Part shown: piece by piece, positions 1,400-52,024 of the stretch
Numbering within the stretch: position 1 is the stretch's first letter
How the letters are laid out: each line of letters begins with the position of its first letter
Assembly (NCBI GenBank): GCA_001643675.2
Contig: LSRY02000008.1
Location: forward strand, 1,736,001 to 1,800,000
Reading direction: 5' to 3'
From: Monocercomonoides exilis PA203
Taxonomy: Eukaryota > Protista > Preaxostyla
Length of the DNA stretch: 64,000 bases
Notes under the pieces: generated by a model
What the model was told of the DNA's origin: nothing
Databases searched by the model: none
The model's input: the letters and a program-made list of their open reading frames with translations, nothing else
Made by a program: the position numbers and the translations under genes

Positions 1400-2340
1400 A
1401 CACATCGAGTTGTGCTCCTTTTCTTTGAGACTCTTATTCGTTATGGAAAATGATCAAGCAATATCAAATGCTCAGAAACTGCCAACGGAGTGAGACTCCG
1501 AAGCTAAAACAAAGGCAGATTGACCAAGTGAAATATTTCCAGCGAATGGGTTGAGTATTGCAAAAGAATATTTGTTTAATGGAAGATGAAATTGTTCATA
1601 TTGATTGCTGGATGGCTGTGTAACAACAATATTTTCGATGGAAATGAAGAATTTTTGATGTATGTAATTTTTATTGTTCTATTTGTTGTGAAGATATTTC
1701 CATCCGTATCCTCTCCAAAGTCGTGATTCAGACAAATTATTTAAAATGGACAATTTATTCTTTGCAGAGGAGAACAGCAATGAAGTGAGACAAACATTAT
1801 TTTACAAATATATTACTAGAGCCTGAATATTTTGTCATAAACTGGCAATTATTTTGGACTCAACATGCGCGATGGATAGAAATGCGACGAAAAATGAGTT
1901 TTGATGGAGCAGAAGTCAACGGGATTGGAAGACTTCCAAGGCAAAAATGGAAGAATGCTCAATATCTATGAAAAGGGAGAGTTTTTAAAAAGAGGAAGAG
2001 GACATTTTCATTTTTAAGTTTGTTGGAGAGATTGGGGCAAATAACTGAAACAGGAGATTGAAATCAGTTTGGACAGAACAATGCGCCTTTCTTTTGGAGA
2101 AGAAGGACAAGACATTGATTTTACGGACTGAGGAGGGATGGAACTGCTTTTTCATTGCTTGGCTTGAGCGAAAAACGAGAAAAACAGACAGTTTGCGTAA
2201 TACGGCAGCTGGAGGCAAATTACAGGCAAAATGGACTTTGAACCATTGCTATCGCCTTTTGCATTGCATCATCGAAGGGTTATTCACAAGGAGAGCAGAA
2301 CGAGGTTGCGATGCTGAAGATATCTTCTGACAGAAGACAC
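1400..2340 (+). other. Decayed 'core' element upstream of cassettes (copy 1)
   Basis: Homologous by eye to 15500-16470, 27240-28210, 53070-53990(-) and, more distantly, 39130-39540(-). No long ORF. Contains the conserved motif and a putative 34-nt intron (1660-1693). Confidence 0.7.
1686..1722 (+). other. Conserved 37-nt motif TTGTGAAGATATTTCCATCCGTATCCTCTCCAAAGTC
   Basis: Also at 15779-15813(+), 27518-27553(+), 39241-39277(-) and 53690-53726(-). Function unknown. Confidence 0.8.
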
Positions 2341-2991
2341 ATAGTATTCAAACTTGAAAATAACATCGCATTCACCAACTTTATCATCTTCATCTCTATC
2401 ATCGCCATCACCGCTGTCATTATCTTCTTCATCTTCATTAAAATTATATTGAAGCATTTTTATTATTTGTGTGTTATTCGAGCGGAATCAGTGCCGAGAA
2501 TTGGAAATGAAGCAAGTTTTTGGAAGCAGAACAGAATCACTTTCATTGGCAATGAAACATACAAGGGAAGCAAGGTTTTTGTTGGCAGAAAAGAACAATA
2601 TTTTGAGAGGCATTCGAAGAAGAAGAAGAAAGTGTGAAGATTGGCGATAAATATATTTCAGAGTTTGTTTTGTATTATTTTTCCTCCAATTTTTCAAACA
2701 TTTTATTTTTTTTTTTTGAGGGATTGAGATTTATGGAAGGACATTTTCAGGCAACGAATGAACATGTATTTGATGAGAAAGCATGACAATTTTTTGAGAA
2801 TATCGAAGAATGAGCTGGAGGAAATCAATGAAATGAATGGAGGGGGGCTTTGAAGATTTGTGCAGCGATTTGAAAAGGGAGGCAACAGAAAATAATCGGA
2901 AAATTGAGGAAATGGCTGAAGAAGAAATGTGACAGGAAGTCAAGAAGGATATGAAGATGAAGAAAAGGAAGCAGATTGCGAAAGGAAAATA

Positions 2992-3051: not shown

Positions 3052-3220
3052 GGTTTTGCATGAATATCAAAAGGGATGAATGCGAATGGAATGGAGAAAG
3101 AAGGAAGAAAAACGGAAACAGAAGGAAAAAAGATTTAGGCGAAAACATTCCTATCAGAAGAGGCGAGCGAGACAAAAAAGATACTAAAACTTATTGGGAT
3201 ATTTTGCAAAATTTTTCTGA

Positions 3221-4640
3221 ATGAAGGGGAAGAAGGAAGAAACGTTGAAGGAAAGAAATTTCTTGTCCAATCTTCAACCCCATTCCTCATCACCTTCAAT
3301 CCCTCTTGTTTCACTCTCAAACTCAGCAAATGAAGCATGCTCACCTTCAACGACTACATCATCCCAAACCTCATATCTAATGAATAGTTGTTCATTCTCA
3401 TCAGTTTGTGACGTTTATGATAGCGGGATTGTTCATTCCCTCAATGACCCCTTGACCTCTTTGACCACCTCAAACACCTCGTTTGTTGGGTGTTGCAGAA
3501 CAAAAATGTTGAATGCAATGGAACTGAAACTAATAAGAAACAACCAGAAAGACAGAACATAACAGCCAATGGACCGAATACATTCACGTGGTGTGAGTGG
3601 AGTGGATCGAAGACAACAGGAGAAAGCGATTCTGTTTCAGATGGAATATCGAGTGGCGGGGCTATCTGCATGTACAATCTCAATTCTGGAGAGCTCTCTG
3701 TTTCACATTGTCTGTTTAATAATTGCTTTGCATACAGCCGTGGAGGTGGAATTATGTGCAACACAATCAAGACTGTGCGTATCGAAAATAACATGTTGTC
3801 TTGCACAGCAACCATTACGGAGGAGGATTATACGTTGTAACGATTTCAACATGTGTACGAATCAGCGGATGTGAATTCAAAATTGTAAAGCAAATTATAA
3901 TGGAGGAGGTCTTGATCTTGATAATTTTAATGCCATAGGAGCAGGATGCATTCCAACAGAAAATGGAGAAGGGGAGAGTGCGTGTGTGTTTGACTGCAGT
4001 TTCACTTCATGCTCGGTGACAAATTACTACGGTGGAGGCATGTATTGTGCAAATATTCCAATCACGCAATTCAAAATGAGGAGCATTCAGTTTATTTCAT
4101 GTTCAGCATCGGCACATGGAGGTGGATTGGAGCTGTATCCATACAGACAAGCATCACAAAATGACGTGATTTATTGTTATTTTTTGTTCTTTCATGAATG
4201 CAAATGCTCTGCAGATACGCCATATGGTCATGATATGGTATATTATGATCGATATAATGTTTTCTTATCTTCGAATAATCCGTTCTATGAATGTTACACC
4301 ACAAACACAGATGACCAGAGGGTGCTATGGACATGATTATACGGATTCCAAGGGTTGGACATATCAGCACACAGAAAAGTGGGATTGGCTGAAGAGAGGA
4401 TTCTCAACCGATTTGTGGCTGTGAGTGGTGGCGGTGAAGAAGTTGTGTGGACTGGATGAGTCAAGTGCATGCAGAACCATTGGTGTTGCAGTTGAAAAGA
4501 GCGTGATTCAGGTGAGCCTGTCAGTCACGCTGATGGGAGGGGATCACACAAGCGAGGTGACAACAATTGAGATTGGAGAAAAGAAGATTTCAGTCATTGG
4601 GAAAGAAGAGAAACACGTTCGATTGGAACAGAAACAAATT
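3221..4640 (+). pseudogene. Cys-rich GGG-repeat beta-helix cassette 1 (C-module type A), frameshifted
   Basis: ORF pieces 3221-3562, 3490-3840, 3986-4336 and 4425- carry family motifs (SCSFSSVCDVYD, FTWCEW, GGAICMY, FDCSFTSCS, YGHD, NPFYECYTTN, CGLDESSACRTI). It has several multi-base deletions, and homology ends at SIGTE (~4632). Confidence 0.85.
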
Positions 4641-7600
4641 TTTTATATTTCATCATTCTCTTCTTTATCTTTTTCTGCTCATTCTTTCTTCTCCCTATTT
4701 ATCAACTATCCTCGAGAAAAAGTGATTCAACAGCTTCAGCTCATTTCATGTCAACTATTAATCTACAAAAATCTTATTTTCAACATCCCTTCTCCTGTTA
4801 TTTTTCCGAGCAGATATTTGAGACAACAAAGAACTCGGAGCAGAAAGACAGATTCAGAGCATTTGTTGATACTGCTAATTGCGAAGGATATGCTTAATAT
4901 TCATTTGTTCTTTCCAACTTTTTCATCAATAATTTTTATTTGTTCAAAAAAGCTTTTTATCCCTCTTTTTATTCCTCATCTTCTTCTTCATCCTCATCTC
5001 AATTTTTTATTCTTTCTTTTCCTTTTCTTTCATTTTGTTTCCTTGTGTTATCTTTTATTATTGTTCTTTTATCAAATTAAAGTGAATAACAATGATATTT
5101 TTTTTAACTTTTTCTTTATTGGATGAAAATTGATTGGGACAACACGTGTCGATTGAACGACATACTGTGTGAGAAAAACAAAAATCAAAACAAAGGAGAA
5201 AACAAAAGAAAATAATGTTGAATGTCATGGAGAAATAGGATTGTCCATTTTCAAGGAAAGCTTTTCAGCTCCAAATGGCTATTCGATGCATCGGCTGGCT
5301 GAAAATATAAACATGCGTGATAATAAAATTCAATCTGTTGATCAAATAATGTTGGCGAAAGCCAAAAACAAAAATCTGTTTGACAAAAATGAAAAAGAAA
5401 AATCTAATTCGAAAATAATCAAAGAAAAAAAGAATAAAAATTATAAGAATATTTAAATACCATCGAAATTGATGAAGCAAATGATGATATCCTCACACTC
5501 AGAAGATAAATTCGTCATTATTTCGCAAGTGCTTCTTCCACACCAACACCAACTCCAATGCCAACACCAACAGACAGCACAACAGCTGAGCCTCATCTCT
5601 TCCAATTGGCCACTTCTCAAAATGACAAATTTCTTTCTTTTTCTCTCTTTTTCTCTCTTTCTCTCTTTCTCTCTTTATGTTTCTCCTGTTTCGCAGTTGC
5701 ATCTCAAATCATTCGCATCTTCTATCTGACAAAGCACACAGCCTTCTTCTGCTCTGCTTATCCCCCTTGCTGTCTCAGATGGCCACACACACGCACACAC
5801 ACAAACACCTCTTCCTTTCCCAATGCAACAAATTGGCGCTCAATTCCTCATCAAGAATTCATTTCTTGCCTTTGAAAAAAGATACCCATGTTGAAAAGAA
5901 AAATCGTGAAAATTGTGCTTTTCTTCTTCTTTTCCCTCTTTTCTGATGAAAAATCAATTGATCAAAAAAATAAATAAATCAATTAATCAATAAAACAAAC
6001 AAACAAACCTTCAAACATCATCAATTTGAATGTCTCTTCACCCATTTTCCCCTTCCATTGCAAATATCAAATGAATATTTCATCCCATCTTCATTTCTTC
6101 ATCCAAATTGCTTGGCTGTTTCCTCCTCAATAAAGAAAGCAATTAGCGAATAACGCTCTTCATTCATCTCTCTGCCTCAATCGCCTTCTTCTGATCTGTC
6201 ATTGAAATGTGATTGAAACAAACAACGAAGAAATAATTTCATTTTCGTTATAAGAACTTTTTGTGTGAATCAGTGAAGAATGATGATGTTGTTGTTGAAG
6301 ATGGCTTCGTATTCCAACAAATGCTGCAATCAAATAGAACCAATGATGGCAGGGGAAGGATGTTCATCATTGATTGAATGGCAAATGGCAGTCTCGTTGT
6401 CTTTTCATATCGTTTCTTTGGTAGAGTTTCTCCACTGAGGCTGAAATTGGTGGTAAGACAATGAATGTGGTGAAGAAATATGTAGAATTTCTTTGTAGGA
6501 GGACAATAATATGCTTGGTCGAAAATCATGTTCCGAGGCTCCAATAACGCTTCTTTGGAGGGAACGGTGAATAACTCAAAAGGATCAGTGAAAAATCATC
6601 AAGACTCAATCTGCAAAAATGCTTGCGAGCTTCATCAGCTCAATCCATGATACGAATTATTGCATTTCGCTCATTTTGGAGACAAACAAATCGCTTTGTT
6701 CAAATCAACGGAGAAATTGTGACAAGCAACCAAAAAATCGTCATCGGCTCAAGTCGGCAAAGACATCGAAGAGAAAATATCGGATATACGCTTGATCATG
6801 TAGCAATACTCCAAATATTCTCATTCCACGTGATTTGTGAGGGATTCAGTTCTGCAATGTTTTGTAAAAAAAATAATAAATTCAAATACTGCATCGGTTG
6901 TTGTCCAAAAAATAGTGCATGAAATCCATGTGGCAGGATTCATGTTTGGCAATATGCAACCAGTATTTCGAGCAATCGCACTCAATCTTGAGTGTTCATG
7001 AAAACATCTCGTTTCTTGTCGTTTCCCCTCCTTTCACACAAAACACAAAATGGAAAGATTCGCTGAAGCTGCTCGTGCGCCAGACTCTGTTGGTGGATGC
7101 CCAGCAACTGCGAGTGTCTTTTTGTGGAACAACTGCTGGAACAAACAGAATGAGGAAAGTTAGTGATTTCGATGCAAAACTGTTCATTGTTCGTTCCAAA
7201 AAAGACATGTCATTTTCGGTAATGAAGCACCTGGCAAGCCTCTCCATTCTGCTCGCGATGTCACATCGTTGCTCAAGAAGTATTCGGTGTTTCTGGAGAA
7301 AAAAAATAAGTTTTGTTCTCACAAAATCACATTCCAACTTATATTTCGATCAATAAATTAGAAAAAAACAATCAATCAACTTGAATTCAACAAAAAATAA
7401 AGATAATAAATTATTATTAATTGTGATTATTGTTGATAGTTGTTTTGTTGCAAAAGGCGAGTTTTGAATCGTTTCTTTTTTGAAAAAAATATATTTGAAA
7501 AATTCGAAATAAATATCATTTCAAGGAATTTGGACAAGATAACAGTGAATCCGCAAACCGTGATATCAAAAACTCTTTGTCTAAATATCTTGTTGATTTG

Positions 7601-11850: not shown

Positions 11851-12599
11851 TTTCTTCCTCTTCTTCTTTCTTTCTATTTTTCCTCAAGCATCCCTCAAAA
11901 TCATATAATCCATCTTCTCTTTCCCTTCTTTCTTCTCATTCACAGATTTTCATAAAACTTTCTCTTTCAATCGAAGTTCCAAAAAATATTTCTTCTTCTC
12001 AATCTCTCGTCAGACTCCTTCTTCTGTCATTTCATCAGTTTTTTTTTTTTTCTTTTCTTTTGGCATGATTGCACTATATGCCTCACAAAGCAATAAAAGG
12101 ACTCCTCTTCTATTCGTTTCCATTGTTGAGCCCGCATTTTCCTTTATCTATACAAAAACCGTTGAACCTTTTGCTGAGCAAAAATGTCAAAACGCCATCT
12201 TTCCATATTCCTTGCGAGTGCATTGGCATTGGGAATTTGTGCAAACATTCCAATATCATTAAAAGAAAATATTTGAAAAATTGAAAAAGAAAAATTGAAA
12301 AAGAAACATTTTTATTTCATGAGCTTCAAAAATAATCACACTTCATTTACATATTCTTCTTCATCATCATCTTTTGTCTTTCAAAATATTGCTCCTTTCT
12401 GCTTGCAAAACCCATCTGCTATGTCTCAGCTGCCAGTATCACAGCCAATAGCATTGCTTCTCTTCTGCTCCAAAATTGTGCTCATTTCCAATCTCAGCTT
12501 CGCTCGCACTCGAACAATTCATGCAACCAAAATGTTTAAAATTGACGAGAATAACGAAGAAAGCGAAGAAGAGGAAGAAGATGAAAATTGTTGAATAAG

Positions 12600-14138
12600 G
12601 AAAAACAGCTTCTGTTCCAATCGAACTCTCCGTCCTCCCTTTCCCAATGACCGAAATCTTCTTTGATCCAATCTCAATAGTTGTTGCTTCGCTTGTGTGA
12701 TTCCCTTCCATCAGCGTGACTGACAAGCTAATCTGCACCTCACACATCTCAAACGCCTTCTTCACTGTCAGACACGGATATGTTTCATTTGACCCACACA
12801 ACTCAAAATTATCATTTCCACCAACAGAAACATATATCGTCTTATCCTTTAGCCAATCCACTTTTCTGTGTGTTGATATGACCAAGCACCTGCATCAGCA
12901 TAATTGTTGCAAAGCAGATCCTCTTATCATTTGTGTTTGTGGTGTAACATTCATGAAACGGATTTCCTGAATCCAAATACAGATTGTATGTATCGACATA
13001 CTCAATATCATGCCGTATGGATTAGTTGCATCCCTGCAATTGCATTCATGAAAGAAAAAAATAACAATAAGTTCCATTGACTGGTTTTTCTGTTTATTCT
13101 GGTCAATCTTAATCCTCCTCCCTCTTGTCGCGCCGAACATGAAATGAACTGTATGCTCCTCATTTTGAATGCAACTGGAACAGTGTACAACACATCCCTC
13201 CACCAATCAGAATTTACAACCGAGCATGAAGTGAAACTGCAGTCAAACACACACGCACTTTCCCCTTCTCCACTTTCTGTTTCAATGCATCCTGTTCCAG
13301 ATACCTGAAATGATTGCAATATTAATCCTCCTCCATAGCTTGATGCCTTGCAATTCCGGAATTCACAATCACTGATCCGAGCACATGATGAAATAGAGCT
13401 GGCATACATTCCGCCTCCATGTTGGTTTTGAGCTGTACACGCATTGAACACATTATTTTCGATATACACAGATTTGATTGTGTTGCACATAATTCCACCT
13501 CCACGGCTGTATGCAAAGCAATTATTAAACAGACAACGTGAAACTGAGAGCTCTCCATTTCCCTTGTTGTACATCCAAATTGCACCTCCACTCGATTTTC
13601 CATCAGCATACGAATCACTTTCTCCTGTCGTCTTCGATCCATTCCATTCACACCAAACAAATTTATTCGCTCCATTTTCTGTTGTATTTTGCCTCTCTGG
13701 AGTCAACTTTCTGTCTGAAGTTCCTTCACAAACAACATTCCTTGCCCGACAACATTTAATAAAAGAGGTGTTTGAAGCAGTCAGAGAAGTAAAGGGATTG
13801 TTGAGGGAAGTGACAATCCCGCCATCATATGCATCACAAACAGACGTAAATGAGCAGCTGCTCATCAGACATGTAGCTTGGGTTGACATTGTGGTTGAAG
13901 GTGAACATGCGTCATTTGCTGTTGATATGTTGAAAAATGTCAAATGAGAAAGAGATATAAGGGGTGAAGACTCATGATAAAAAATTGGCAAAAAAGAAGA
14001 AGTGCAACTCACACACAAAAATACTATCTTCGACGCTGTCTTCTCTTCCTCTGCCTCTTGGAGCAATCTGGCAAAATATTTAATAAATTCAAAATCCTTC
14101 TTCCCGCCTCTTCCGCTGCTTCTCAAAGGGATATCCAT
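12600..14138 (-). pseudogene. Beta-helix cassette 3 (type B module), frameshifted
   Basis: ORFs 13008-14138, 12895-13206 and 12439-12885. Module WLKDKTIYVSV..CGSNETYPCLTVKKAFEMC. Homology ends at SSIGTE (~12610). Confidence 0.85.
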
Positions 14139-15499
14139 AAGAGAAAAGCATCTTTTTCTTCAGTGCCACCAAATGGATACGGAACTCCAATGTTATTTGT
14201 CAACTGTTTTCCACAGAATCTCTTTTTCTTCTGTTGTCATTTCCTGTCTTCTTTCCAAATTCAATTTTCTCGCATATATTTTGAACACATGCAAGGGCTC
14301 CGGTATCAATAAAAAAACAGAAAAAAATAAAGAAAAATTACAGACAACGAAAATAAATATATTTCAATATAAAAAAGATGAAATTAAAAACAAAGTATTT
14401 TTATAAAAATAAAAATTAATAAATAAACTGTTCCTCTTTCTTTTTGCAATCTTCCTCTTCTCCTTCCTCTTCTTTTCCTGCCAGCCCCAGCCTATTCAGC
14501 ATTGCTTTCCTCCGTTCTTCACCTCGCAAACAGACCTCCCAGCCCTGTCACTTCTCAATGCTTCCAATGCTATTTCGTGCTATCCTCTCATTGCGCCAGA
14601 TCAATCTTCACTTTTGTCAATCATTTTCACAAAAAGCACATATCTCTTTGAAAATAAAACCATAAACAAACAAACAAATAAACAAATAAACAAATAAATA
14701 TCGAATTCACAAACGCAACATGTGTCAACATCCAGAAATGATAACTGCCCCCTTCCGCTTCCCTTCCCCTCCTCTTCCCTGTCCTTTCCGCTCAACTCTC
14801 CCTCCCCCAGCAAAGCACACGACCCACACCCTGACCATTTGCTTCATCGCAGCAACACCAAAACCCCAAGATGTCACCTCTCTCAGCCATCATTCACCCC
14901 ATTTTTCTGCCATCTTCCTTTGCTCTTTCCTTCTCATCCCATCTGCTCCCCTCTCCTGCTGCCAATTTCCAACACTTCCACAGCCTTCATCTTTCTGTTG
15001 CCTCTTCGCCTTTTTCCCTCCTCCCTTTCATTCCTCTATTGATTTATTTCATTTTTTCATATGTAATTTTCCATTTTTCTCTCTTTCTCTCTCTAAAACA
15101 TCACAATTCCCCAACCAACACTCTTCTGCTAGCATCCATTTCATTTGCAGTGTGCAACACTGCCCCCACCGTTACTGCCCGCAATACACATTATCCACAA
15201 CAAATCACAAGAATCAAAAAAACATAGCAAACACATCCTAACAACCTGCTGAAAACAAAAGGCAAAACATCCTCATCTTCTAAAATTTTCTTTCCTCTTG
15301 TCCTCCCTTCATCTCCACAATTCTCCCCAAAAAACACACAAAACAATCCCAATTATCGAATTTGCCAACAACCCAGACATCAAATCCCTTTCAAATTCAA
15401 AACACCCACAACCACCTCGCCGTAATGCAAATAACAGCCGTCATTGCACATCCACCGGCCTTTGCCTCAGTGCTCGGAGTGTACCGAGAAAAATACAAT

Positions 15500-16470
15500 T
15501 TGTCTATTCCAGTCTTCAATTATGCATACGATCGTCACAATTTTGAAAAAAAGAAAAAACTGAAAACTACCTTTGTAAATGGGAGGGCATCAGACAATAA
15601 TATTTTATGGTGGATTTGCTGAATTATTGTTTTTGAAGGCGTCTTGTGCGACTGGGACTGGTGTTGAATTTGGAAAGACTTGAAGCGATTTTTTGTACAA
15701 GAAAGGGGATGGAGCACCGATGCTTTGAAAATATTATATATATCACGGGATATATGTATTTCTGATAATTCTATATAATGTGAAGATATTTTCATCCGTA
15801 TCCTTCCCAAGTCATGATTCGGACAATTTTATATTAAAAGTCAATTTATTTTTTTGAAGAGGACAATAGCAGGGAATCACACCAATATTACCTACAAACA
15901 GCAAATATTAAAACATGAGGATTTTTTAACGAAAAATTTCACAGTTATTTTTGATGCAATATGCAATGGGTCGAAATGCAACGAAAAACGAGTTTTAATG
16001 GAGCAGAAATTCATGGAGTCGGAAAATGCCAAATACAAAAAGGAAGTGTGACCAATTTTTCTGAAAAGGCTGCCTTTTTTTTAAAAAGAGGAAGAGGACA
16101 TTTTCAGAAAATTTGTTGGAGGGATTGGAGTGGATGCATTGAATGGAAAATGGAGACAAGTGGCTGAAACAAGAGATTGGCGGTTGTTGCTGGACGAATG
16201 GATTTTCTTGGGTTGATAAGGACAAGACAATATTTTTATGGACTGAGAAGAGTAGTGGAACTAAATTTGATTGCTTGGTTTGAGAGCGATAATGCAAGAA
16301 AAACAGGCAGTTCGGCGTAATACAAGCAGCTGGAGGCAAATGACAGGCAAAATGGATTTGAATCATTTTGCAATCGCCTTTGGCATTGTATCATCGAAGG
16401 GTTATCCATTGAAGCAGAGAACGAGGTTTTTTTTGAAGCAATCTTCGACAGAAAATATCCGACATTAAAG
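15500..16470 (+). other. Core element copy 2
   Basis: Shares GAGGAAGAGGACATTTTCA, GCAGCTGGAGGCAAAT..CAGGCAAAATGGA and the conserved motif with copy 1. Confidence 0.7.
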
Positions 16471-17308: not shown

Positions 17309-19066
17309 TTGAGGAGCATTTGCAGAAGAGTGGGAAAAAGGGAAGAGGATGAAAAGTTTGTTGTGGGGATGGGGAAGGATATTGAGGCAGGGGCATTTGA
17401 TGTGAGTGGGAGCATTGGGGCGTTGACAAACATCACATTGAAAGGATGGAGAAGAGGGGAGAGATATACTCGGGAAGGCTGTTTGGAGGGAAGGGATATG
17501 GAGGGGAGAAGGGTGGAGATGAAGAGAAAGGAGGAGAAAGAGGAGAAGGAGGCAGAGGAAGAGGAAGAAAAGGAGATGGATATGGAGAAGGTATTGAAGG
17601 GAGTATTTCGGTGAGTGAATCACGATTCTCTTCTTTTTGTGTCTCATCAGCCCCATTCCTGTCATCCCCTTCAATACCCCTTGTATCCCTCTCCAAACTC
17701 ACATTTTTCAACATCTCAACAGCAAATGATGCATGTTCACCTCCAACCACTGCATCAATCCAAACCTCTTGTTTTATGAACAGTTGTTCATTTTCGTCTG
17801 TTTGTGATGCATATGATGGCAGGATTGTTCATTCCCTCAACAATCCCTATGCCTCTTTAACTGCCTCAAATACCTCGTTTGTTGGATGTTATCGGACAAG
17901 AAATGTTGAATGCAGTGGAACAGCAGAGGTTCCTTTGAAGCCAGACAGACAGAACGAAACATTCAATGGAGCTAATTCATTCACTTGGTGCGAATGGAAT
18001 GGATCGAAAACATCAGGAGAAAGTGATTCATGGACGGATGGAGAATCGAGCGGAGGGGCAATCTGTGTGAATGGTTTATCATCTGCCTCTGTGTCTGTTT
18101 CCCATTGTATATTTAATAATTGTTTTGCATACAGTCGTGGAGGGGGAATAATGTGCGCAAGCATAAAAGAAGTTAAAATAGAGAACAACTCATTTAATGC
18201 ATGCACAGCTCAGAATCATTATGGGGGTGGAATGCTTATTTATGCGATTTCATTGTGTGCTCGAATCAGCGATTGTGAATTCCAGAATTGCAAAGCAAAT
18301 AGCTATGGAGGAGGGCTTTATCTTAATAATTTTAATATTTCAGGAACCGGATGCATTGAAGCAGAAAATGAAGGAGGAGAGAGTGCGTGTGTGTTTGACT
18401 GCAGTTTCACTTCATGTTCGGTTACAAATTATTATGGTGGAGGCATGCGTTGTTACAATGTTCCTAATCAATTCAAAATGAGGAGCATTCAATTTATTTC
18501 ATGTTCAGCATTAAGAGAGGGAGGAGGATTATTATTACAGCCAAATCGAGAAACAATACCAAATGATGGAATTCATTGTTATTTTTGTTCTTCCATGAAT
18601 GCAGCTGCAGGGATGCAAATAATCCACGTGGGCATGACGTTGAATATGTTGATTATTACAATCTGTATTTGGAATCAGGAAATCCATTTTATGAATGTTA
18701 CACCACAAACACAGATGAGAAGAGGATCTGCTTTGCATACAATTATGCAATTGCAAATGTTTGGACATATGACGAAATATCAAAAAGGATTGGCTGAAGA
18801 GAGGGATTCTCAATCGATTTGTGGCAGTGAGTGGAGGAAACGCAGAAGAGTTGTGTGGATTGGATGAGTCAAGTGCATGCAGAACCATTGGTGTTGCAGT
18901 TGAAAAGAGCGTGATTCAAGTGAGCCTGTCAGTCACGCTGATGGGAGGGGATCACACAAGCGAGACAACAACTATTGAGATTGGAACAAAAAGATTTAAG
19001 TCATTGGGAAAAGAAGAGGATTCATCATCTTTGGAAATATCGGACTCACAATGGAAACATCATTGA
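17309..19066 (+). pseudogene. Beta-helix cassette 4 (type A); duplicate of cassette 6
   Basis: ORFs 17309-17614, 17446-18867, 18576-18797 and 18821-19066. As far as compared, it differs from 29050-30810 only by homopolymer length. Confidence 0.9.
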
Positions 19067-20999
19067 GATGATGTTTATTGTTTGAGCACTTTTAATTGCC
19101 AGCACAAGATTTTGAACAAAACATTTCAAGGCAATGGCCATGTGGATCTGCATTCTGTGCTTTGGAAGATGTTGAGCACCTGAGCCAGGAAAGCACAGAA
19201 TGAATGATCGTTTTTGTTTCTTGAAGTGCTGAATGGCGATGGGAAGAGGAGTGCTTTCCACTTAGATCTGAGCAATTGGTTGTCATGTTAATGCTGCTGA
19301 AACGTATTGACAGGCAAAAGGGGTTTGAAGCATATGAAGCGGAAGATGGCAGGTTAAAGGTGCCTTTGAGGAATTTACTTGAACGGTGATAAACAAATGA
19401 AGTGAGCCTTGGGGTTTGTTTGTTATTGGATGGAGAAAAGTATTGTTGGAAGAGAATAAGAGTGAAGCAGCGTTTGATTTGTTCATTAATTTTAGAAGAG
19501 TTTTCTTTTTTTTTTTTTTTTTTCAATTTTTGCAAAAATCAAATGTATTGCCATTTTTGAGATATTTTGTGCTTATTATTCTTTTTCTTGAGTAGTTCTG
19601 ATGATAAATAAGTGTGCAAAAATTAAAATTGACGAGATAAAATGTTTTAGGGATAATATGAATTGGGTATTGGATATGGACAAGGAAATGGGGCATTTCA
19701 AACATTTTCATTGAAAAAAGTATCTGTGAAAAAGAATGAGAAAGAATTATTGCAATGAGCCCAAAATGGAGCCAAGAACAGAAAATATCGAGACACATCC
19801 AAACAGTTGTTTTAGAAAAATTCTTTATTCCAACTGTTCAGAGAGGATCAAGTCAAATGTGAAATTGAATTTTGTGTAAAACTCGAGAAACATTTTCAAA
19901 TCATCAAAAAGAGTCAGTTCTGATATGTGAGGATTTTGAAACACAAAAAAAGGTGACTTTATTTTTTCTCTATTATTATTTTTAAAACGACGATTTTCAT
20001 TTTCATTTCCTTAATTTTTTGATTGTTTCTGAGGATTGTCAAAATGGTTCGAAGAGATGATGAAAAGAGAAAAAAATGAAGATTTGGACAAGCGATGCAA
20101 TCAATTCAGATTAAAAATACAACAGGAATTAAATAATTTGAAACAGGGGTTTTCAACCTTGTTGGCTGTATCATGATTCAATTATCATCCAAATCACTTT
20201 CTTTTGGAAAACACAAAATTTTTCAAATTTTTTAGAAAATGAAACTGAGTGATTTGTTTTCACATCATTCTTTTTCTTTCAAGAAATTTTAATTAAAGTA
20301 TTGTTTTTATTTTTAACAAACGGATATGAAAAATAATGAAACAGCCTATTCTCAAGTTAATTATGTTCCGTTACATGTTTGTGGTGAATGCTTTATAATG
20401 AAAAACATGTTATTCTTTTTGAAACATCGCAAATGTTTGATTGACAAGTGGGAACACAAAACATCATTTGATCTATTTTGAAACAAACTCTTCAAACTGT
20501 TCAAAGACACAATAAAAATGAAGTGGTCTTGTCTGCATATTGAAACTCGTATTTTTATTTATTTTGATTGGACGGTTTAAAGAATTTAGCAAATTATAAC
20601 TTTAATAATTAATTGAATGAATTCAAAATACTTAATTGATTTCACTCTTTATTTGCGATTTAAAAGAAATATCCTTATTTTAGGAAACAAATATTAAAAA
20701 CACCTTTTAAAAACACAAAACTTTAATTAATAACTTTTTGTTCATTTTTTATTCCTTTTAACATTCAAAGGAGTCAAAATCATCTAAATTTTTATTGTCA
20801 TCTTTCATTAATTATCTGAATAAACGATTCACTTTTTTTCTCAAATGACAATTATTCTTCTTCAATTTTTCCAGTTTTCATCTTGTGTTTTTCATAAATC
20901 TCATCCCATTCATCAATAAGTTTTTCTTATGAAATTTCGAATACGAAAAAACCGAAACAATGTGAGTGTGAAGGAATGAAGTATTTAAAGACTGAGGAT

Positions 21000-21621: not shown

Positions 21622-21654
<33 letters not shown>

Positions 21655-23251: not shown

Positions 23252-24305
23252 ACATTTGTTTTTGTTTTTATTCAAGTGAAGAAACATCAAAAATCAAAAT
23301 TATTGAAATTTTTGTTAAAAACTTTTTTTTTTTTAATTTTTAATAATTTTTAATTTTTTTTTGATAAAAATCATTCGTCGATATATCATCTCACACGGAA
23401 TATCAGATATAAGTGGGGAATTATAAATATCGCATTTCTAAGAATAAATCATCAGTTATTGTGAAATTTATTGATGTTTGTGGTATTTTTTTCCTGATGG
23501 AAAAAGCAACATTTACTGAAATAAAAAATCTGATATGATCACCAAAAATTGAGCAAAAGCAAAAGTGATCATATCAATTAATACTGTATTTCTGGTGAAT
23601 TTATTTTATTTGAAAAAAAGGATAAAACTGTATTTGTATTGAATTATCAGTTTCCAATATTTAATAATTAGATTGAAAGATAAAGATAATTTGTGATTCA
23701 TTATCGGCAAAGGAGATTACGGAAAATGGATGCTTTATCAACTTAATTCGTTAATTTTGATAATTCTTTTGAATAAAAACTTTCCATTTCTTTGCGTTTT
23801 GGTATCTAAGAAAAATAAACAAAAAAAATAGTATCAAAATCAATTGCTCAGCCAATGAAGACAATATCTAATCATTGCCAAAATCTTTTTTAATCTCATT
23901 CATTTTTGGATACATTTTTTGTGACTATAAACGATTGTGATTATTAGCAAGGGTCAAAGAGAGTGCATCTACAGCCAAGCCTGTTATAGATGCGATTGTG
24001 AATATTATATTTTTTTTTGATTTTAAACCAAAAAGCCATAACAATTTCATATTTCCATTCCTGATTTTTTTGAAACACTCAAATATATACATTGTTTCAT
24101 CATTGTTAAAGTTTGTATTTTTTTCCTTTTCTTTTTCTTTTTAGCTTCATTGAATACTTTTAAAGTATTACATAAGCAAACTATTTCGATTTTTTTAATC
24201 AAAATACTATTCTATTTCACTTTTTCTAATACAAAAGACAAAAGCTCACAACAGGCAAAAAACTTTGTACCAACAATGAAAAGTGCTCAAACAATAAACA
24301 TAATC

Positions 24306-25936
24306 TCAATGATGTTTACATTGTGAGTCCGATATTTCCAAAGATGATGAATTCTCTCCTGTTCCAATAACTGAAATCTTCTTTGATCCAATCTCAATAG
24401 TTGTTGCTTCGCTTTGATGCTTCCCTTCCATTAATGTGATTGCCAAACTAATCTGCACCTCACACATCTCAAACGCCTTCTTCACTGTCAGACACGGATA
24501 TGTTTCATTTGCCCCACACAACTCAAAACTATCATTTCCATTCACCGAAACATATAACGTCTTGTCCTTCAGCCAATCCTTTTTTGATGTTTGATCAAAT
24601 GTCCAGGCACCTGCATTTGCATAATTGTGTGCATAGCACATTCTCTTGTCATCTGTGTTTGTGGTGTAGCATTCATAGAATGGATTTCCAGAATCCAAGT
24701 ACAAATTGTTATTATCGTAATATATTGCATCGTGCCCATATGGTGTGGATGCAGATCTACACTTGCAATCGTGAAAAAATAAGAAGAAGCAATATAGTTT
24801 ATTATCCGGTGCCGTTTCTCGATTTGGATGCAAACATAATCCACCTCCATTGGATAATGCAAAACATGAAATAAACTGAATGGTACTCATTTTGAATTGT
24901 GTCGCAGGAACGGTAACGCAATACATCCCTCCACCAATCGTATTTGTGACTGAGCATGAAGTGAAACTGCAGTCAAACACACACGCACTCTCCCCTTCCC
25001 CATTTTCTGTTGGAATGCATCCTGACCCTGAAACACTAAAACTGTACAATCGTAAACCACCACCTTCGCTGTTAGCTTTGCAATTCTTAAATTCGCACCC
25101 ACCGATCCGAACACATTCCAAAATCGAATAAGCATACATTCCTCCTCCGTAATGGTTTTGTGCTGTGCAAGCATTGAACACATTATTTTCGATATATACA
25201 GATTTGATTGTATGACATATAATCCCACCACCACGGCTGTACGCAAAACAATTATTAAACAGACAATGCGAAACTGAAAGTTCTCCAGAATTGAGATTGT
25301 ACATGAAAATGGCCCCTCCACTCGATTTTCCATCCGTCCATGAATCACTTTCTCCTGTTGTCCTCGATCCACTCCATTCGCACCAAGTGAATGTATTCGT
25401 TCCATTTTCTGTTTCGTTTTGTCTCCCTGGAGTCAACTTTCTGTCTGAAGTTCCTTCACAAACAACATTTCTTGTCCTTCAGCATTTAATAAAAGAGGTG
25501 TTTGAAGCAGTCAGAGAAGCCAAGGGATTGTTGAGGGAAGTGACAATCCCGCCATCATACGTATCACAAACTGATGAGAATGAGCAACTATTCATCAAAT
25601 ATGTGGTTTGGGATGAGGAAGTGGTAGAAGGCGAACATGCGTCATTTGCTGTTGAGATGTTGAAAAACGTGAGTTGTGAGAAGGAAACAAGGGGAATGAA
25701 GACTCATGAGAATAATTGGCAAAAAGAGGAGAAGTGCAACTCACACACAAAAATACTATCTTCGACGCTGTCTTCTCTTCCTCTGCCTCTTGGAGCAATC
25801 TGGCAAAATATTTAATAAATTCAAAATCCTTCTTCCCGCCTCTTCCGCTGCTTCTCAAAGGGATATCCATAAGAGAAAAGCATCTTTTTTCTTCAGTGCC
25901 ACCAAATGGATACGGAACTCCAATGTTATTTGTCAA
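24306..25936 (-). pseudogene. Beta-helix cassette 5 (type B)
   Basis: 376-aa ORF 24306-25436. The upstream framework continues but has an in-frame TGA at 25479-25481 (IKC*RTRN vs IKCCRARN). Ends with SSSLEISDSQCKHH. Confidence 0.85.
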
Positions 25937-27239
25937 CTGTTTTCCACAGAATCTCTTTTTCTTCTGTTGTCATTTCCTGTCTTCTTTCCAAATTCAATTT
26001 TCTCGCATATATTTTGAACACATGCAAGGGCTCCGGTATCAATAAAAAAACAGAAAAAAATAAAGAAAAATTACAGACAACGAAAATAAATATATTTCAA
26101 TATAAAAAAAGATGAAATTAAAAAACAAAGTATTTTTATAAAAATAAAAATTAATAAATAAACTGTTCCTCTTTCTTTTTGCAATCTTCCTCTTCTCCTT
26201 CCTCTTCTTTTCCTGCCAGCCCCAGCCTATTCAGCATTGCTTTCCTCCGTTCTTCACCTCGCAAACAGACCTCCCAGCCCTGTCACTTCTCAATGCTTCC
26301 AATGCTATTTCGTGCTATCCTCTCATTGCGCCAGATCAATCTTCACTTTTGTCAATCATTTTCACAAAAAAGCACATATCTCTTTGAAAATAAAACCATA
26401 AACAAACAAACAAATAAACAAATAAACAAATAAATATCGAATTCACAAACGCAACATGTGTCAACATCCAGAAATGATAACTGCCCCCCTTCCGCTTCCC
26501 TTCCCCTCCTCTTCCCTGTCCTTTCCGCTCAACTCTCCCTCCCCCAGCAAAGCACACGACCCACACCCTGACCATTTGCTTCATCGCAGCAACACCAAAA
26601 CCCCAAGATGTCACCTCTCTCAGCCATCATTCACCCCATTTTTCTGCCATCTTCCTTTGCTCTTTCCTTCTCATCCCATCTGCTCCCCTCTCCTGCTGCC
26701 AATTTCCAACACTTCCACAGCCTTCATCTTTCTGTTGCCTCTTCGCCTTTTTCCCTCCTCCCTTTCATTCCTCTATTGATTTATTTCATTTTTTCATATG
26801 TAATTTTCCATTTTTCTCTCTTTCTCTCTCTAAAACATCACAATTCCCCAACCAACACTCTTCTGCTAGCATCCATTTCATTTGCAGTGTGCAACACTGC
26901 CCCCACCGTTACTGCCCGCAATACACATTATCCACAACAAATCACAAGAATCAAAAAAACATAGCAAACACATCCTAACAACCTGCTGAAAACAAAAGGC
27001 AAAACATCCTCATCTTCTAAAATTTTCTTTCCTCTTGTCCTCCCTTCATCTCCACAATTCTCCCCAAAAAAACACACAAAACAATCCCAATTATCGAATT
27101 TGCCAACAACCCAGACATCAAATCCCTTTCAAATTCAAAACACCCACAACCACCTCGCCGTAATGCAAATAACAGCCGTCATTGCACATCCACCGGCCTT
27201 TGCCTCAGTGCTCGGAGTGTACCGAGAAAAATACAATTT

Positions 27240-28210
27240 GTCTATTCCAGTCTTCAATTATGCATACGATCGTCACAATTTTGAAAAAAAAGAAAAAACT
27301 GAAAACTACCTTTGTAAATGGGAGGGCATCAGACAATAATATTTTATGGTGGATTTGCTGAATTATTGTTTTTGAAGGCGTCTTGTGCGACTGGGACTGG
27401 TGTTGAATTTGGAAAGACTTGAAGCGATTTTTTGTACAAGAAAGGGGATGGAGCACCGATGCTTTGAAAATATTATATATATCACGGGATATATGTATTT
27501 CTGATAATTCTATATAATGTGAAGATATTTTCATCCGTATCCTTCCCCAAGTCATGATTCGGACAATTTTATATTAAAAGTCAATTTATTTTTTTGAAGA
27601 GGACAATAGCAGGGAATCACACCAATATTACCTACAAACAGCAAATATTAAAACATGAGGATTTTTTTAACGAAAAATTTCACAGTTATTTTTGATGCAA
27701 TATGCAATGGGTCGAAATGCAACGAAAAACGAGTTTTAATGGAGCAGAAATTCATGGAGTCGGAAAATGCCAAATACAAAAAGGAAGTGTGACCAATTTT
27801 TCTGAAAAGGCTGCCTTTTTTTTAAAAGAGGAAGAGGACATTTTCAGAAAATTTGTTGGAGGGATTGGAGTGGATGCATTGAATGGAAAATGGAGACAAG
27901 TGGCTGAAACAAGAGATTGGCGGTTGTTGCTGGACGAATGGATTTTCTTGGGTTGATAAGGACAAGACAATATTTTTATGGACTGAGAAGAGTAGTGGAA
28001 CTAAATTTGATTGCTTGGTTTGAGAGCGATAATGCAAGAAAAACAGGCAGTTCGGCGTAATACAAGCAGCTGGAGGCAAATGACAGGCAAAATGGATTTG
28101 AATCATTTTGCAATCGCCTTTGGCATTGTATCATCGAAGGGTTATCCATTGAAGCAGAGAACGAGGTTTTTTTTGAAGCAATCTTCGACAGAAAATATCC
28201 GACATTAAAG
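27240..28210 (+). other. Core element copy 3 (inside the 8-kb duplication)
   Basis: Near-identical to 15500-16470. Confidence 0.75.
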
Positions 28211-29049
28211 ATCTTTAAATCCTCTTCTACACTTTCAGTCTCATCGTTTTCTTCATCTTCATCCCCTTCATCTACTTCATTTCCTTCATCGAATTCTTCT
28301 CTGTCATTATTTTCAAATGCATCTCCTCAACAAAGAAATTATATATTTTTTCACCCCTTCTTGGTCATTATCTTCTTCTTCTTCACCAAATCGTTTTGAA
28401 GGATATTTGTTGAAAGAGTTATTTGAGAAGAAGCAGAACAGGAGAATGGAAATAGGATGTTTTTTTGGAGAAGCAGAAGAGAAGCAAAGCTGTTGAATGA
28501 ATGATGGAAGATGGAGATGAGGGGAAATGGGTGCTTTTGCAGAAAGAAAAAATGATCTAGAGAAGAAGAAAGAAGAAAGAAGAAGAACAGAAGCAATGAA
28601 GAATAGAGATTGTCAAAGGCATGAACACATAATTTTTTTGAATAAAAGAAATAACATTTTATCAAACTTTTCTAATATATATTTTTATTTGAAATTAGGA
28701 TCTTTTTGGAAGAATATCTTCGTTGGTTAAAAGCGCGAGGGATGAGGAAAGATGGATTTTGAGGCGATCCCGGGAAGATGGCAGAAGGCAGGAAATGGAA
28801 TGGGCATAGATGAGTGAGCAAAGGGAAACATATGAAATGTGTGGAAAAGATGGGATTTGCGAAATGGAAAAGGTATTTTGAAAAGGGGGAGGGGAAGCGA
28901 TAAAAGATAGAGAGAAGAGAAATTGATGATAAGGCAGAAGGAGAAATTTGAGAAATAATTGAGAAGAAGAAGGCATTAATAAGAAAACAGATTGAAAACG
29001 GATGAAAGGCGAGGAAATGGAGGAAAAAGGAATTTGAAGATAGAATGTT

Positions 29050-30744
29050 TTGAGGAGCATTTGCAGAAGAGTGGGAAAAAGGGAAGAGGATGAAAAGTTT
29101 GTTGTGGGGATGGGGAAGGATATTGAGGCAGGGGCATTTGATGTGAGTGGGAGCATTGGGGCGTTGACAAACATCACATTGAAAGGATGGAGAAGAGGGG
29201 GAGAGATATACTCGGGAAGGCTGTTTGGAGGGAAGGGATATGGAGGGGAGAAGGGTGGAGATGAAGAGAAAGGAGGAGAAAGAGGAGAAGGAGGCAGAGG
29301 AAGAGGAAGAAAAGGAGATGGATATGGAGAAGGTATTGAAGGGAGTATTTCGGTGAGTGAATCACGATTCTCTTCTTTTTGTGTCTCATCAGCCCCATTC
29401 CTGTCATCCCCTTCAATACCCCTTGTATCCCTCTCCAAACTCACATTTTTCAACATCTCAACAGCAAATGATGCATGTTCACCTCCAACCACTGCATCAA
29501 TCCAAACCTCTTGTTTTATGAACAGTTGTTCATTTTCGTCTGTTTGTGATGCATATGATGGCAGGATTGTTCATTCCCTCAACAATCCCTATGCCTCTTT
29601 AACTGCCTCAAATACCTCGTTTGTTGGATGTTATCGGACAAGAAATGTTGAATGCAGTGGAACAGCAGAGGTTCCTTTGAAGCCAGACAGACAGAACGAA
29701 ACATTCAATGGAGCTAATTCATTCACTTGGTGCGAATGGAATGGATCGAAAACATCAGGAGAAAGTGATTCATGGACGGATGGAGAATCGAGCGGAGGGG
29801 CAATCTGTGTGAATGGTTTATCATCTGCCTCTGTGTCTGTTTCCCATTGTATATTTAATAATTGTTTTGCATACAGTCGTGGAGGGGGAATAATGTGCGC
29901 AAGCATAAAAGAAGTTAAAATAGAGAACAACTCATTTAATGCATGCACAGCTCAGAATCATTATGGGGGTGGAATGCTTATTTATGCGATTTCATTGTGT
30001 GCTCGAATCAGCGATTGTGAATTCCAGAATTGCAAAGCAAATAGCTATGGAGGAGGGCTTTATCTTAATAATTTTAATATTTCAGGAACCGGATGCATTG
30101 AAGCAGAAAATGAAGGAGGAGAGAGTGCGTGTGTGTTTGACTGCAGTTTCACTTCATGTTCGGTTACAAATTATTATGGTGGAGGCATGCGTTGTTACAA
30201 TGTTCCTAATCAATTCAAAATGAGGAGCATTCAATTTATTTCATGTTCAGCATTAAGAGAGGGAGGAGGATTATTATTACAGCCAAATCGAGAAACAATA
30301 CCAAATGATGGAATTCATTGTTATTTTTTGTTCTTCCATGAATGCAGCTGCAGGGATGCAAATAATCCACGTGGGCATGACGTTGAATATGTTGATTATT
30401 ACAATCTGTATTTGGAATCAGGAAATCCATTTTATGAATGTTACACCACAAACACAGATGAGAAGAGGATCTGCTTTGCATACAATTATGCAATTGCAAA
30501 TGTTTGGACATATGACGAAATATCAAAAAAGGATTGGCTGAAGAGAGGGATTCTCAATCGATTTGTGGCAGTGAGTGGAGGAAACGCAGAAGAGTTGTGT
30601 GGATTGGATGAGTCAAGTGCATGCAGAACCATTGGTGTTGCAGTTGAAAAGAGCGTGATTCAAGTGAGCCTGTCAGTCACGCTGATGGGAGGGGATCACA
30701 CAAGCGAGACAACAACTATTGAGATTGGAACAAAAAAGATTTAA
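29050..30744 (+). CDS. Beta-helix cassette 6 (564-aa open frame, type A), no ATG-led signal peptide
   Basis: Uninterrupted ORF (TTG start in the track) with a Gly/Glu-rich segment and the full repeat domain. It stops at TAA where paralogs have Ser (KKI*VIG). Confidence 0.85.
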   Translation: MRSICRRVGKREEDEKFVVGMGKDIEAGAFDVSGSIGALTNITLKGWRRGGEIYSGRLFGGKGYGGEKGGDEEKGGERGEGGRGRGRKGDGYGEGIEGSISVSESRFSSFCVSSAPFLSSPSIPLVSLSKLTFFNISTANDACSPPTTASIQTSCFMNSCSFSSVCDAYDGRIVHSLNNPYASLTASNTSFVGCYRTRNVECSGTAEVPLKPDRQNETFNGANSFTWCEWNGSKTSGESDSWTDGESSGGAICVNGLSSASVSVSHCIFNNCFAYSRGGGIMCASIKEVKIENNSFNACTAQNHYGGGMLIYAISLCARISDCEFQNCKANSYGGGLYLNNFNISGTGCIEAENEGGESACVFDCSFTSCSVTNYYGGGMRCYNVPNQFKMRSIQFISCSALREGGGLLLQPNRETIPNDGIHCYFLFFHECSCRDANNPRGHDVEYVDYYNLYLESGNPFYECYTTNTDEKRICFAYNYAIANVWTYDEISKKDWLKRGILNRFVAVSGGNAEELCGLDESSACRTIGVAVEKSVIQVSLSVTLMGGDHTSETTTIEIGTKKI

Positions 30745-32744
30745 GTCATTGGGAAAAGAAGAGGATTCATCATCTTTGGAAATATCGGACTCACAATGGA
30801 AACATCATTGAGATGATGTTTATTGTTTGAGCACTTTTAATTGCCAGCACAAGATTTTGAACAAAACATTTCAAGGCAATGGCCATGTGGATCTGCATTC
30901 TGTGCTTTGGAAGATGTTGAGCACCTGAGCCAGGAAAGCACAGAATGAATGATCGTTTTTGTTTCTTGAAGTGCTGAATGGCGATGGGAAGAGGAGTGCT
31001 TTCCACTTAGATCTGAGCAATTGGTTGTCATGTTAATGCTGCTGAAACGTATTGACAGGCAAAAGGGGTTTGAAGCATATGAAGCGGAAGATGGCAGGTT
31101 AAAGGTGCCTTTGAGGAATTTACTTGAACGGTGATAAACAAATGAAGTGAGCCTTGGGGTTTGTTTGTTATTGGATGGAGAAAAGTATTGTTGGAAGAGA
31201 ATAAGAGTGAAGCAGCGTTTGATTTGTTCATTAATTTTAGAAGAGTTTTCTTTTTTTTTTTTTTTCAATTTTTGCAAAAATCAAATGTATTGCCATTTTT
31301 GAGATATTTTGTGCTTATTATTCTTTTTCTTGAGTAGTTCTGATGATAAATAAGTGTGCAAAAATTAAAATTGACGAGATAAAATGTTTTAGGGATAATA
31401 TGAATTGGGTATTGGATATGGACAAGGAAATGGGGCATTTCAAACATTTTCATTGAAAAAAGTATCTGTGAAAAAGAATGAGAAAGAATTATTGCAATGA
31501 GCCCAAAATGGAGCCAAGAACAGAAAATATCGAGACACATCCAAACAGTTGTTTTAGAAAAATTCTTTATTCCAACTGTTCAGAGAGGATCAAGTCAAAT
31601 GTGAAATTGAATTTTGTGTAAAACTCGAGAAACATTTTCAAATCATCAAAAAGAGTCAGTTCTGATATGTGAGGATTTTGAAACACAAAAAAAAGGTGAC
31701 TTTATTTTTTCTCTATTATTATTTTTAAAACGACGATTTTCATTTTCATTTCCTTAATTTTTTGATTGTTTCTGAGGATTGTCAAAATGGTTCGAAGAGA
31801 TGATGAAAAGAGAAAAAAAATGAAGATTTGGACAAGCGATGCAATCAATTCAGATTAAAAATACAACAGGAATTAAATAATTTGAAACAGGGGTTTTCAA
31901 CCTTGTTGGCTGTATCATGATTCAATTATCATCCAAATCACTTTCTTTTGGAAAACACAAAATTTTTCAAATTTTTTTAGAAAATGAAACTGAGTGATTT
32001 GTTTTCACATCATTCTTTTTCTTTCAAGAAATTTTAATTAAAGTATTGTTTTTATTTTTAACAAACGGATATGAAAAATAATGAAACAGCCTATTCTCAA
32101 GTTAATTATGTTCCGTTACATGTTTGTGGTGAATGCTTTATAATGAAAAACATGTTATTCTTTTTGAAACATCGCAAATGTTTGATTGACAAGTGGGAAC
32201 ACAAAACATCATTTGATCTATTTTGAAACAAACTCTTCAAACTGTTCAAAGACACAATAAAAATGAAGTGGTCTTGTCTGCATATTGAAACTCGTATTTT
32301 TATTTATTTTGATTGGACGGTTTAAAGAATTTAGCAAATTATAACTTTAATAATTAATTGAATGAATTCAAAATACTTAATTGATTTCACTCTTTATTTG
32401 CGATTTAAAAGAAATATCCTTATTTTAGGAAACAAATATTAAAAACACCTTTTAAAAACACAAAACTTTAATTAATAACTTTTTGTTCATTTTTTATTCC
32501 TTTTAACATTCAAAGGAGTCAAAATCATCTAAATTTTTATTGTCATCTTTCATTAATTATCTGAATAAACGATTCACTTTTTTTCTCAAATGACAATTAT
32601 TCTTCTTCAATTTTTCCAGTTTTCATCTTGTGTTTTTCATAAATCTCATCCCATTCATCAATAAGTTTTTCTTATGAAATTTCGAATACGAAAAAACCGA
32701 AACAATGTGAGTGTGAAGGAATGAAGTATTTAAAGACTGAGGAT

Positions 32745-51800: not shown

Positions 51801-52024
51801 AGATTCGCATGTCGAAACGCTTCCATCTTCACCTCCTTATCTTCTCCTTGCTCTTGGAGTCATGTCGCAAAATATCTCAAGAAGCTCATATCCCATTGTC
51901 TTGCCTCTTCCACTTCTTTTGATTACATGCTCTCTTTAAATATCTTTTTCTCCGCTTTTCTCCTTTTGCCTTCTTTCCATATTCCATTCGCATTCTTCGC
52001 TTTTGAATGTTAGCACAAAAGTCC

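Follow-up and report, generated by a model that had tools for sequence, protein, structure and literature searches.

The closest described case to the element reported here is that of the microsporidian 'long introns' located within Poly-A-binding and S23 genes (Whelan et al. 2018, PMC6349667), the likeness lying in the pattern. According to that paper, these are likewise short spliceosomal introns of fixed size that are more conserved than their host exons, their internal conserved region overlaps a small stem-loop, and they carry a C/D-like motif without a proper snoRNA fold and were proposed to be functional RNA (PMC6349667). Poorly conserved non-coding exons around a conserved intron are also a trait of snoRNA host genes such as GAS5 (PMC4408788). 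The Plasmodium var intron and pairing elements, together with RUF6, offer a parallel in that a conserved intron or non-coding element recurs throughout a family of variable surface genes (PMC8957917), and the Giardia 12-nt ncRNA 3'-processing motif shares a pyrimidine-rich tail ending in AA and its place in metamonad ncRNA and introns (PMC3510501).

The window analysed is the whole stretch of 64,000 nucleotides of Monocercomonoides exilis DNA. This organism is a gut protist without a mitochondrion. The tyrosine-kinase-like family is described as the largest of its genome (PMC6759080), 320 TKL kinases overlap unclassified repeats (PMC6759080, PMC8767320), and unclassified repeat makes up ~35% of the genome, much of it overlapping tyrosine-kinase-like receptors (PMC8767320). 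Within the consulted sections of PMC6759080 and PMC8767320, no motif or intron of the kind described below is mentioned. What is found in the window is a real, selected and apparently undescribed intronic element that heads units of the genome's main gene family (Table 1).

Copies of the motif and the conserved unit

The motif was first recognised as a 37-mer, and the initial annotation was accurate as to its best copies, since the 37-mer recurs without change at 1686-1722(+) and 53690-53726(-) and with 1 mismatch at 39241-39277(-), against 0 matches in 100 shuffles. Two diverged copies, announced as a 26-nt core at 15779 and 27518, do exist (at 15778 and 27517) and keep 25/26 of the core, but they belong to a single tandem duplication of 96% identity. 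A profile built from four copies gave exactly 5 matches in the window (E<=1.5e-16), the next match standing at E=1.9. Because the 15k and 27k copies are one duplication, only three independent lineages are represented, namely A (A1 and A53, the 1.7k and 53.7k copies, which lie in one duplicated block of ~78%), B (B15 and B27) and C (C39). The 34-nt spacing from GTATGT to GAAG noted earlier holds as well, with both B copies beginning AT, not GT, and having a GT 4 nt further downstream. Identity of the motif between A1 and A53 is unremarkable, these two copies sharing four longer exact runs (92, 66, 56 and 53 nt vs 52 nt). Between A1 and C39 the motif is by far the longest common run, with 32 nt, the next being 14 nt. 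Judged from these alignments, the conservation signal comes from the 39k and 15k/27k copies and not from A1-A53 identity.

The conserved unit turned out to be a 61-nt intron with a 26-nt core (1687-1712) instead of the 37-mer itself. A1, A53, B27 and C39 align over 61 columns without a gap, and the variable columns are unevenly distributed, with 12/21 in the 5' part, 1/26 in the core and 4/8 in the tail (5' part vs core, Fisher p=5.6e-5, the core having been chosen post hoc). This uneven variation argues for selection over recency, and at the level of the aligned copies purifying selection on the core is established. Homology between A1 and C39 covers 1659-1722, and in pairs with C39 the flanking 30 nt are alike at 10-13/30 positions and the core at 24-26/26. 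Contigs of one DNA run (X1) and of three RNA runs (X5, X6 and X7, all from a single RNA study, unstranded) were compared with positions 300-3000. In the DNA run, contigs of another subfamily break off at 1658 (n=25) and 1721 (n=28), and the consensus of these broken ends resembles the C39 flanks by eye, indicating that C comprises several members which have the intron alone in common. The depth of the DNA run, which is summed contig depth and not copy number, peaks over the motif at 37,270, the next-highest bin reaching 9,834.

Other candidate introns of the window begin with GTTTG or GTCTG, are U-rich and measure 47-100 nt, unlike the motif intron, whose first letters are GTATGT and whose 3' end is rich in C. 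Conservation is poor in the unit's next candidate intron, which served as a control (at best 32/58 in B and 36/58 in C). As for introner traits, the upstream flanks of the window copies show no relationship, but the copies occupy one and the same place in the unit and have related downstream flanks. The B lineage, in which the GT is lost, is 48/61 identical to A1 vs 54/61 for C, though exon 2 of B is far nearer to A. This extra drift in the B intron would fit a relaxation after loss of splicing, and the 25/26 core positions that the B copies keep without GT would fit a site acting at the DNA level. An exact scan with the core gave 0 matches in each of the metagenome, viral and prokaryote collections. 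The CpG o/e of the window is 0.60. Literature searches turned up no paper on this motif.

The motif copies are regularly spaced at ~11-14 kb (1.7, 15.8, 27.5, 39.3, 53.7 and a predicted 64.6 kb), which is probably just the unit size. A giant near-perfect palindrome occupies 54358-64000 (centre 59116-59240), with arms that are 99-100% complementary and a 125-nt spacer, and its mirror predicts a sixth motif copy beyond the window end, at ~64.6 kb on the + strand; the palindrome may be a genuine inverted duplication or may stem from fold-back in the assembly. The 9.6-kb tandem duplication joins 12638-22240 and 24358-33989 at 96% identity, and several single-base homopolymer differences in it may be assembly errors. 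A 1.27-kb MITE- or foldback-like element at 21979-23248 has 608-nt arms (99%) and a 54-nt spacer and adjoins long T runs, with related pieces at 33729-33992 and 42724-42991. A 1.2-kb TTTCTT array is present at 40714-41878, and an array of a 15-nt unit (15.7 copies, 37917-38151) lies downstream of C39.

Table 1. Positions of the intron copies, leader exons and cassettes in the window
Feature	Position	Strand	Description
Intron copy A1	1660..1720	+	61 nt, GT..AG; paralog RNA joints in X5/X6, none in DNA run X1
Near-invariant core	1687..1712	+	26 nt; 1/26 columns variable; predicted weak hairpin over unused AG 1692-1693
Intron copy B15	15752..15811	+	starts AT; 60 nt, C run one C shorter
Intron copy B27	27491..27551	+	starts AT; 48/61 identical to A1
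Intron copy C39	39243..39303	-	54/61 identical to A1; 30-nt flanks 12/30 and 13/30
Intron copy A53	53692..53752	-	56/61 identical to A1; five distinguishing letters in unspliced RNA contigs, 3/3 RNA runs
Leader/host RNA first exon, non-coding	1489..1659 (5' end approximate)	+	X6 contig 1489-1659 joined to 1721
Second exon, non-coding	1721..2335	+	~72% alike A vs B; barely alignable to C
Control candidate intron, U-rich	2663..2720	+	RNA joint 2658->2721 in X6; not conserved across subfamilies
Cassette ahead of A1	3053..4658	+	broken, truncated ectodomain piece
Cassette ahead of B15	17318..19087	+	
Cassette ahead of B27	29044..30810	+	
Cassette ahead of C39	35006..36937	-	
Cassette ahead of A53	50385..52119	-	
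Divergent cassette behind B15	12374..14159	-	
Divergent cassette behind B27	24240..26063	-	
Divergent cassette behind A53	55976..57973	+	

Splicing and retention of the intron in RNA

A joint 1659->1721, which removes 61 nt with GT..AG ends, was found in X5 and X6, and the earlier proposal of GTATGT as a 5' splice site was thereby right. A second joint, 1655->1724 with 7 other letters, occurs in the same two runs and is the same intron in a paralog, and X6 held three loose contig ends at 1721 reading as the upstream exon. Neither intron joint was found in the X7 RNA run, nor any in the DNA run X1. Since the RNA joints use the AG at 1719-1720, the motif lies within the intron and reaches as far as its 3' splice site. 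The skip of 34 nt (1659->1694) corresponding to the intron originally proposed was not among the joints listed for X1 or for the three RNA runs; with 61-nt joints seen and no such skip, the 'YFHPYP' that was read from an exon is intron sequence. The spliced contigs derive from paralogs, one of them differing at 27 positions in 172 nt, and the window's own copies are presumably spliced in the same way. That the motif is intronic in the A subfamily is highly probable.

Unspliced contigs with the five distinguishing intron letters of A53 were present in all three RNA runs, and spliced and intron-retaining RNAs coexist. RNA depth stayed at or below 5.2 in nine bins of 664-1482, where DNA depth was 433-9,155, and was high over 1574-2483 (48-182 in X5, 25-136 in X6 and 4-90 in X7), documenting transcription and not DNA carry-over. 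In the bin 1665-1755 the mean RNA depth was well above the value expected from the 5' half of the intron, an excess possibly due to unspliced RNA of other subfamilies or to minor use of the first AG.

The ends of the intron are of U2-type GT..AG, removed in RNA (paralog contigs of X5 and X6) and present in DNA, and no clear consensus branch point was seen in it by eye. A U12-type intron was rejected, as the start is GTATGT and not RTATCCT; a GTATCCT string sits near the 3' end. The minor spliceosome is reported to be absent from M. exilis (PMC6759080), snRNA candidates of the species are given as 'data not shown' (PMC6679479), and Streblomastix introns are described as having no fused branch-point motif (PMC6260720, PMC1501061).

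The leader transcript and the receptor-kinase cassettes

The second exon of the host RNA was shown to be non-coding, with a best-frame synonymous share of 0.25-0.29 vs 0.27-0.35 in the nulls (p 0.74-0.96), the cassettes having 0.38-0.43 vs 0.22-0.27 (p=0.003, the floor of the test). Positions 2400-3050 gave a borderline codon signal (p=0.053) and may be a decayed ORF start. The leader has an AUG count of ~20-29. At curated score, Pfam found nothing in the YFHPYP frames, the exon-2 ORFs or the cassettes, and when the first 700 residues of each of 92 long family members were compared by tblastn with the leader regions, only low-complexity Ser-rich matches came up, none of them credible. Exon 2 is not unusually structured either (z -0.68, covariation term unfavourable). 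Upstream exons are largely unalignable between subfamilies (z<=2.4 in the first 100 nt), and the homology of exon 2 is clear between A and B (z 8-22) and weak between A and C (z 3.6-4.0, first 100 nt). The G-C skew flips ~250-300 nt upstream of the intron in 4/4 copies checked, weakly in C39. A transcribed non-coding exon of ~620 nt is seen at 1721-2335, 15812-16453, 27552-28193 and 53066-53691; it has blocks conserved between A and B, with exact runs of 23, 16 and 16 nt, and ends at a short palindrome (2313-2327) that weakly mirrors the motif start (E=1.9).

All 5 motifs face a same-strand cassette at a distance of 1,393-2,366 nt, and the initial annotation was right to see a cis feature tied to the cassette system. 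Its statement that the copies lie upstream of a cassette in the same orientation stands in 5/5 cases but is incomplete, as in 3/4 copies with sequence behind them a divergent cassette also lies 1,428-2,224 nt behind the motif, and only 5/12 cassettes have the motif in front. There is one motif per divergent (head-to-head) gene pair and not one per cassette.

Among the matches listed for one cassette (n=120), 118 were named M. exilis proteins and 2 were encoded by the window, several of the named protein models matching the window at 98-100%. Proteins of this family are ~2,700 aa long, and PF07714 was present in 58/107 longer cassette homologs. Full-length members have one strong hydrophobic segment at residues 2215-2274 (6/6 checked), and a C-terminal kinase was found in both full-length members scanned against Pfam. 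Only residues 208-803 of full-length members are matched by the window, and the cassettes are therefore truncated ectodomain pieces of a receptor-like tyrosine-kinase-like family. A sequence search of PDB with one cassette protein gave 0 matches. In all 12 cassettes the match is confined to the N-terminal part, residues ~200-800, of single-pass receptor kinases ~2,700 aa in length, and yet the codon signal is strong; the cassettes may be secreted decoy ectodomains or gene-conversion donors.

Possible functions and comparison with known systems

The reading preferred here, with a probability of roughly 0.4, takes the motif to be the near-invariant 3' half of a spliceosomal intron, 61 nt long and situated in a non-coding leader, and to serve as a cis RNA element deciding between splicing and retention of this intron. 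The core would form a weak hairpin of 7 bp with an 8-nt loop, this hairpin would hide the first AG and thereby direct splicing to the distal AG, and a protein or small RNA would bind the core. With a site common to all subfamilies, one factor could tune the processing of leader transcripts family-wide, and leader processing could in turn tune the expression of the units. Conservation that starts and stops at the splice sites, the gap-free length of 61 nt, the greater drift inside the intron of the GT-less B lineage than of C, and a hairpin kept in 28/28 cells (one G-C to G-U change, no compensatory pair) all support this reading. The predicted hairpin, of 7 bp with an 8-nt loop, spans the unused AG at 1692-1693.

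The same reading is weakened by the poor stability of the hairpin and by covariation in 0/7 of its pairs. Folding energies are no better than in shuffles (whole-intron z -0.64 to +0.74, 37-mer z -1.71), with an intron MFE of -3.2 to -6.4 kcal/mol. It is weakened further by the B copies, in which 25/26 of the core persists despite the missing GT, as might be expected of a DNA-level site, by spliced contigs that are paralogs from 2/3 runs of one study, by a leader that holds ~20 AUGs with a single leader-cassette transcript only putative, and by the failure to find a partner within the unit, as no duplex of the core with its own flanks or unit was significant (p 0.06-0.53). The window held no antisense partner of the core. 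Also counting against a cis RNA element is the length of the invariant 26-mer, which exceeds that of most RNA-binding sites. A far-reaching version, in which an intron-borne regulatory RNA class of oxymonads would have many promoter-proximal non-coding transcripts release or retain the same 26-nt element as a shared signal choosing, among hundreds of receptor-kinase ectodomain genes, those to be expressed, is decidedly unlikely.

Possible, though on the unlikely side, is an element acting as DNA, whereby the core would be a protein-binding site ~300 nt downstream of the divergent promoter and would control the gene pair at the level of transcription or chromatin. The site would consist of GATA/TATC half-sites, inverted and 10 bp apart, and the sole role of the intron would be to exclude the core from the mature RNA. 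A single copy for each divergent pair, set at a constant distance from the skew flip, a core of 25/26 in B copies despite the lost GT and the lack of covariation are what such a site would give, and the var intron of Plasmodium is a precedent (PMC8957917). A protein-binding site would however need neither the exact intron length nor conservation ending at both splice sites, its dyad is unremarkable, and the extra drift of the B lineage inside the intron speaks against it.

It is unlikely that the excised intron, or its 3' 35 nt, is a stable small RNA for which the exons are mere carriers, as in snoRNA host genes. The intron is conserved while its exons are non-coding and unalignable between subfamilies, and a box-C-like heptamer that matches RUGAUGA at 6/7 positions opens the core, where weak C/D-family Rfam alignments fall (E=0.8-5, far below gathering score); 20-50-nt C/D RNAs are described in mouse (bioRxiv 10.64898/2026.07.28.740266). 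Against such an RNA, box D (CUGA) is absent from 5/5 intron copies and no Rfam match reached the gathering score, either among 7 hits in the window or 8 hits in 1450-2450. The longest rDNA complement is 9-11 nt, as in shuffles (112/114 loci of other eukaryotes, only 3 with near-full LSU). In addition, the core continues into the 3' splice site, the closeness of A53 to A1 extends over both exons, and blocks of exon 2 are conserved between A and B. The hairpin is too short for a mirtron, which was rejected for want of a long pre-miRNA hairpin (MFE -3.2 to -6.4 kcal/mol). An H/ACA fold was absent and the tRNA search found none. A MITE or DNA-transposon end was likewise rejected, the only inverted likeness being weak (2313-2327, E=1.9), its duplex not above shuffles and no target-site duplication seen by eye.

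Very unlikely is an intron of no special function, homogenised by short gene conversion or recently spread as a mobile intron. Homology boundaries coinciding with the splice sites and mostly unrelated upstream exons (z<=2.4, first 100 nt) would suit it, but not the very uneven divergence within the intron (12/21 vs 1/26), its same place in the unit in 3/3 subfamilies, or the alignment in register of exon 2 of A and C over the first 100 nt (z 3.6-4.0).

Very improbable is an extended form of the earlier 34-nt intron, in which dual in-frame acceptors 27 nt apart give introns of 34 and 61 nt in a small or decayed ORF and constraint on the 27 nt is twofold, as codons (YFHPYPLQS) and as a splice signal. 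The 27 nt do make 9 codons, A1, A53 and C39 each have a frame that stays open for 31-34 codons past the junction (P 0.08-0.10 for each in shuffles), residues M, N, L and E align between A and C, and mean RNA depth in the bin 1665-1755 clearly exceeds that in the 5' half of the intron. The 34-nt joint is nevertheless absent from 3 RNA runs, and other candidate introns of the window measure 47-100 nt. The check by codon position turned out negative, with A1-C39 differences of 13/9/12 and, for A1-A53, 0 synonymous vs 6 replacement changes. The exon proposed to encode YFHPYP did not hold up either, its frame being broken in A53 and B27 and its flanks giving no codon signal; no protein of at least 77 aa matched the 43-aa frame, and HPYP was absent from 227 family proteins.

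Sites of site-specific recombination include those of the lox/FRT and Pneumocystis CRJE types. That the motif is such a site, swapping cassettes behind promoters, is extremely improbable: different first exons do precede related exon-2/cassette blocks and the cassettes are truncated pieces of full-length genes, but the 8/12 dyad on which the idea was built is reached by 900/9,138 window 37-mers (~10%) and by 4% of shuffled versions of the motif and is down to 6/12 in B copies, the change of homology comes at the splice sites and not in the proposed 8-bp spacer, the breakpoint lying at the GT ~38 nt upstream of it, and the motif is in front of only 5/12 cassettes, 1.4-2.4 kb from the ORF.

A 26-nt element that is fixed while the surrounding exons diverge beyond recognition gives a precise handle on the tyrosine-kinase-like family, and the motif marks an unannotated class of non-coding transcripts. 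If it acts as RNA, as in the preferred reading of a cis element setting splicing or retention, it would join the microsporidian long introns as a second instance in which a tiny intron is preserved on account of its own sequence. If the shared-signal reading is true, a variable surface family would have a system of counting or mutual exclusion that is based on an intron.

Compared with the known systems, the M. exilis intron differs from the var intron in being 61 nt long, upstream of the ORF and present once per divergent pair. The Plasmodium var intron is much longer than 61 nt. It interrupts a coding region and acts as a bidirectional promoter (PMC8957917), and the parallel is limited in that mutually exclusive expression is not known for the M. 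exilis kinases. The 12-nt Giardia processing motif, with 6 invariant positions, has 36 exact matches in the window, none of which (0/36) fall in the motif introns. The cassettes are homologous to the N-terminal ectodomain of the tyrosine-kinase-like family of the same genome (PMC6759080, PMC8767320), but the window copies are without transmembrane segment and kinase. Unlike the introns of snoRNA host genes, the M. exilis intron has no box D, no H/ACA fold and, on the eukaryote rDNA loci scanned, no above-chance rRNA complement, and its conserved block abuts the 3' splice site. In relation to the microsporidian long introns, it is multi-copy in one genome, lies in a non-coding leader, has a core that runs into the 3' splice site and is without covariation, whereas those introns lie within protein-coding ORFs, show conservation between species and feature an extended branch point together with compensatory changes (PMC6349667).
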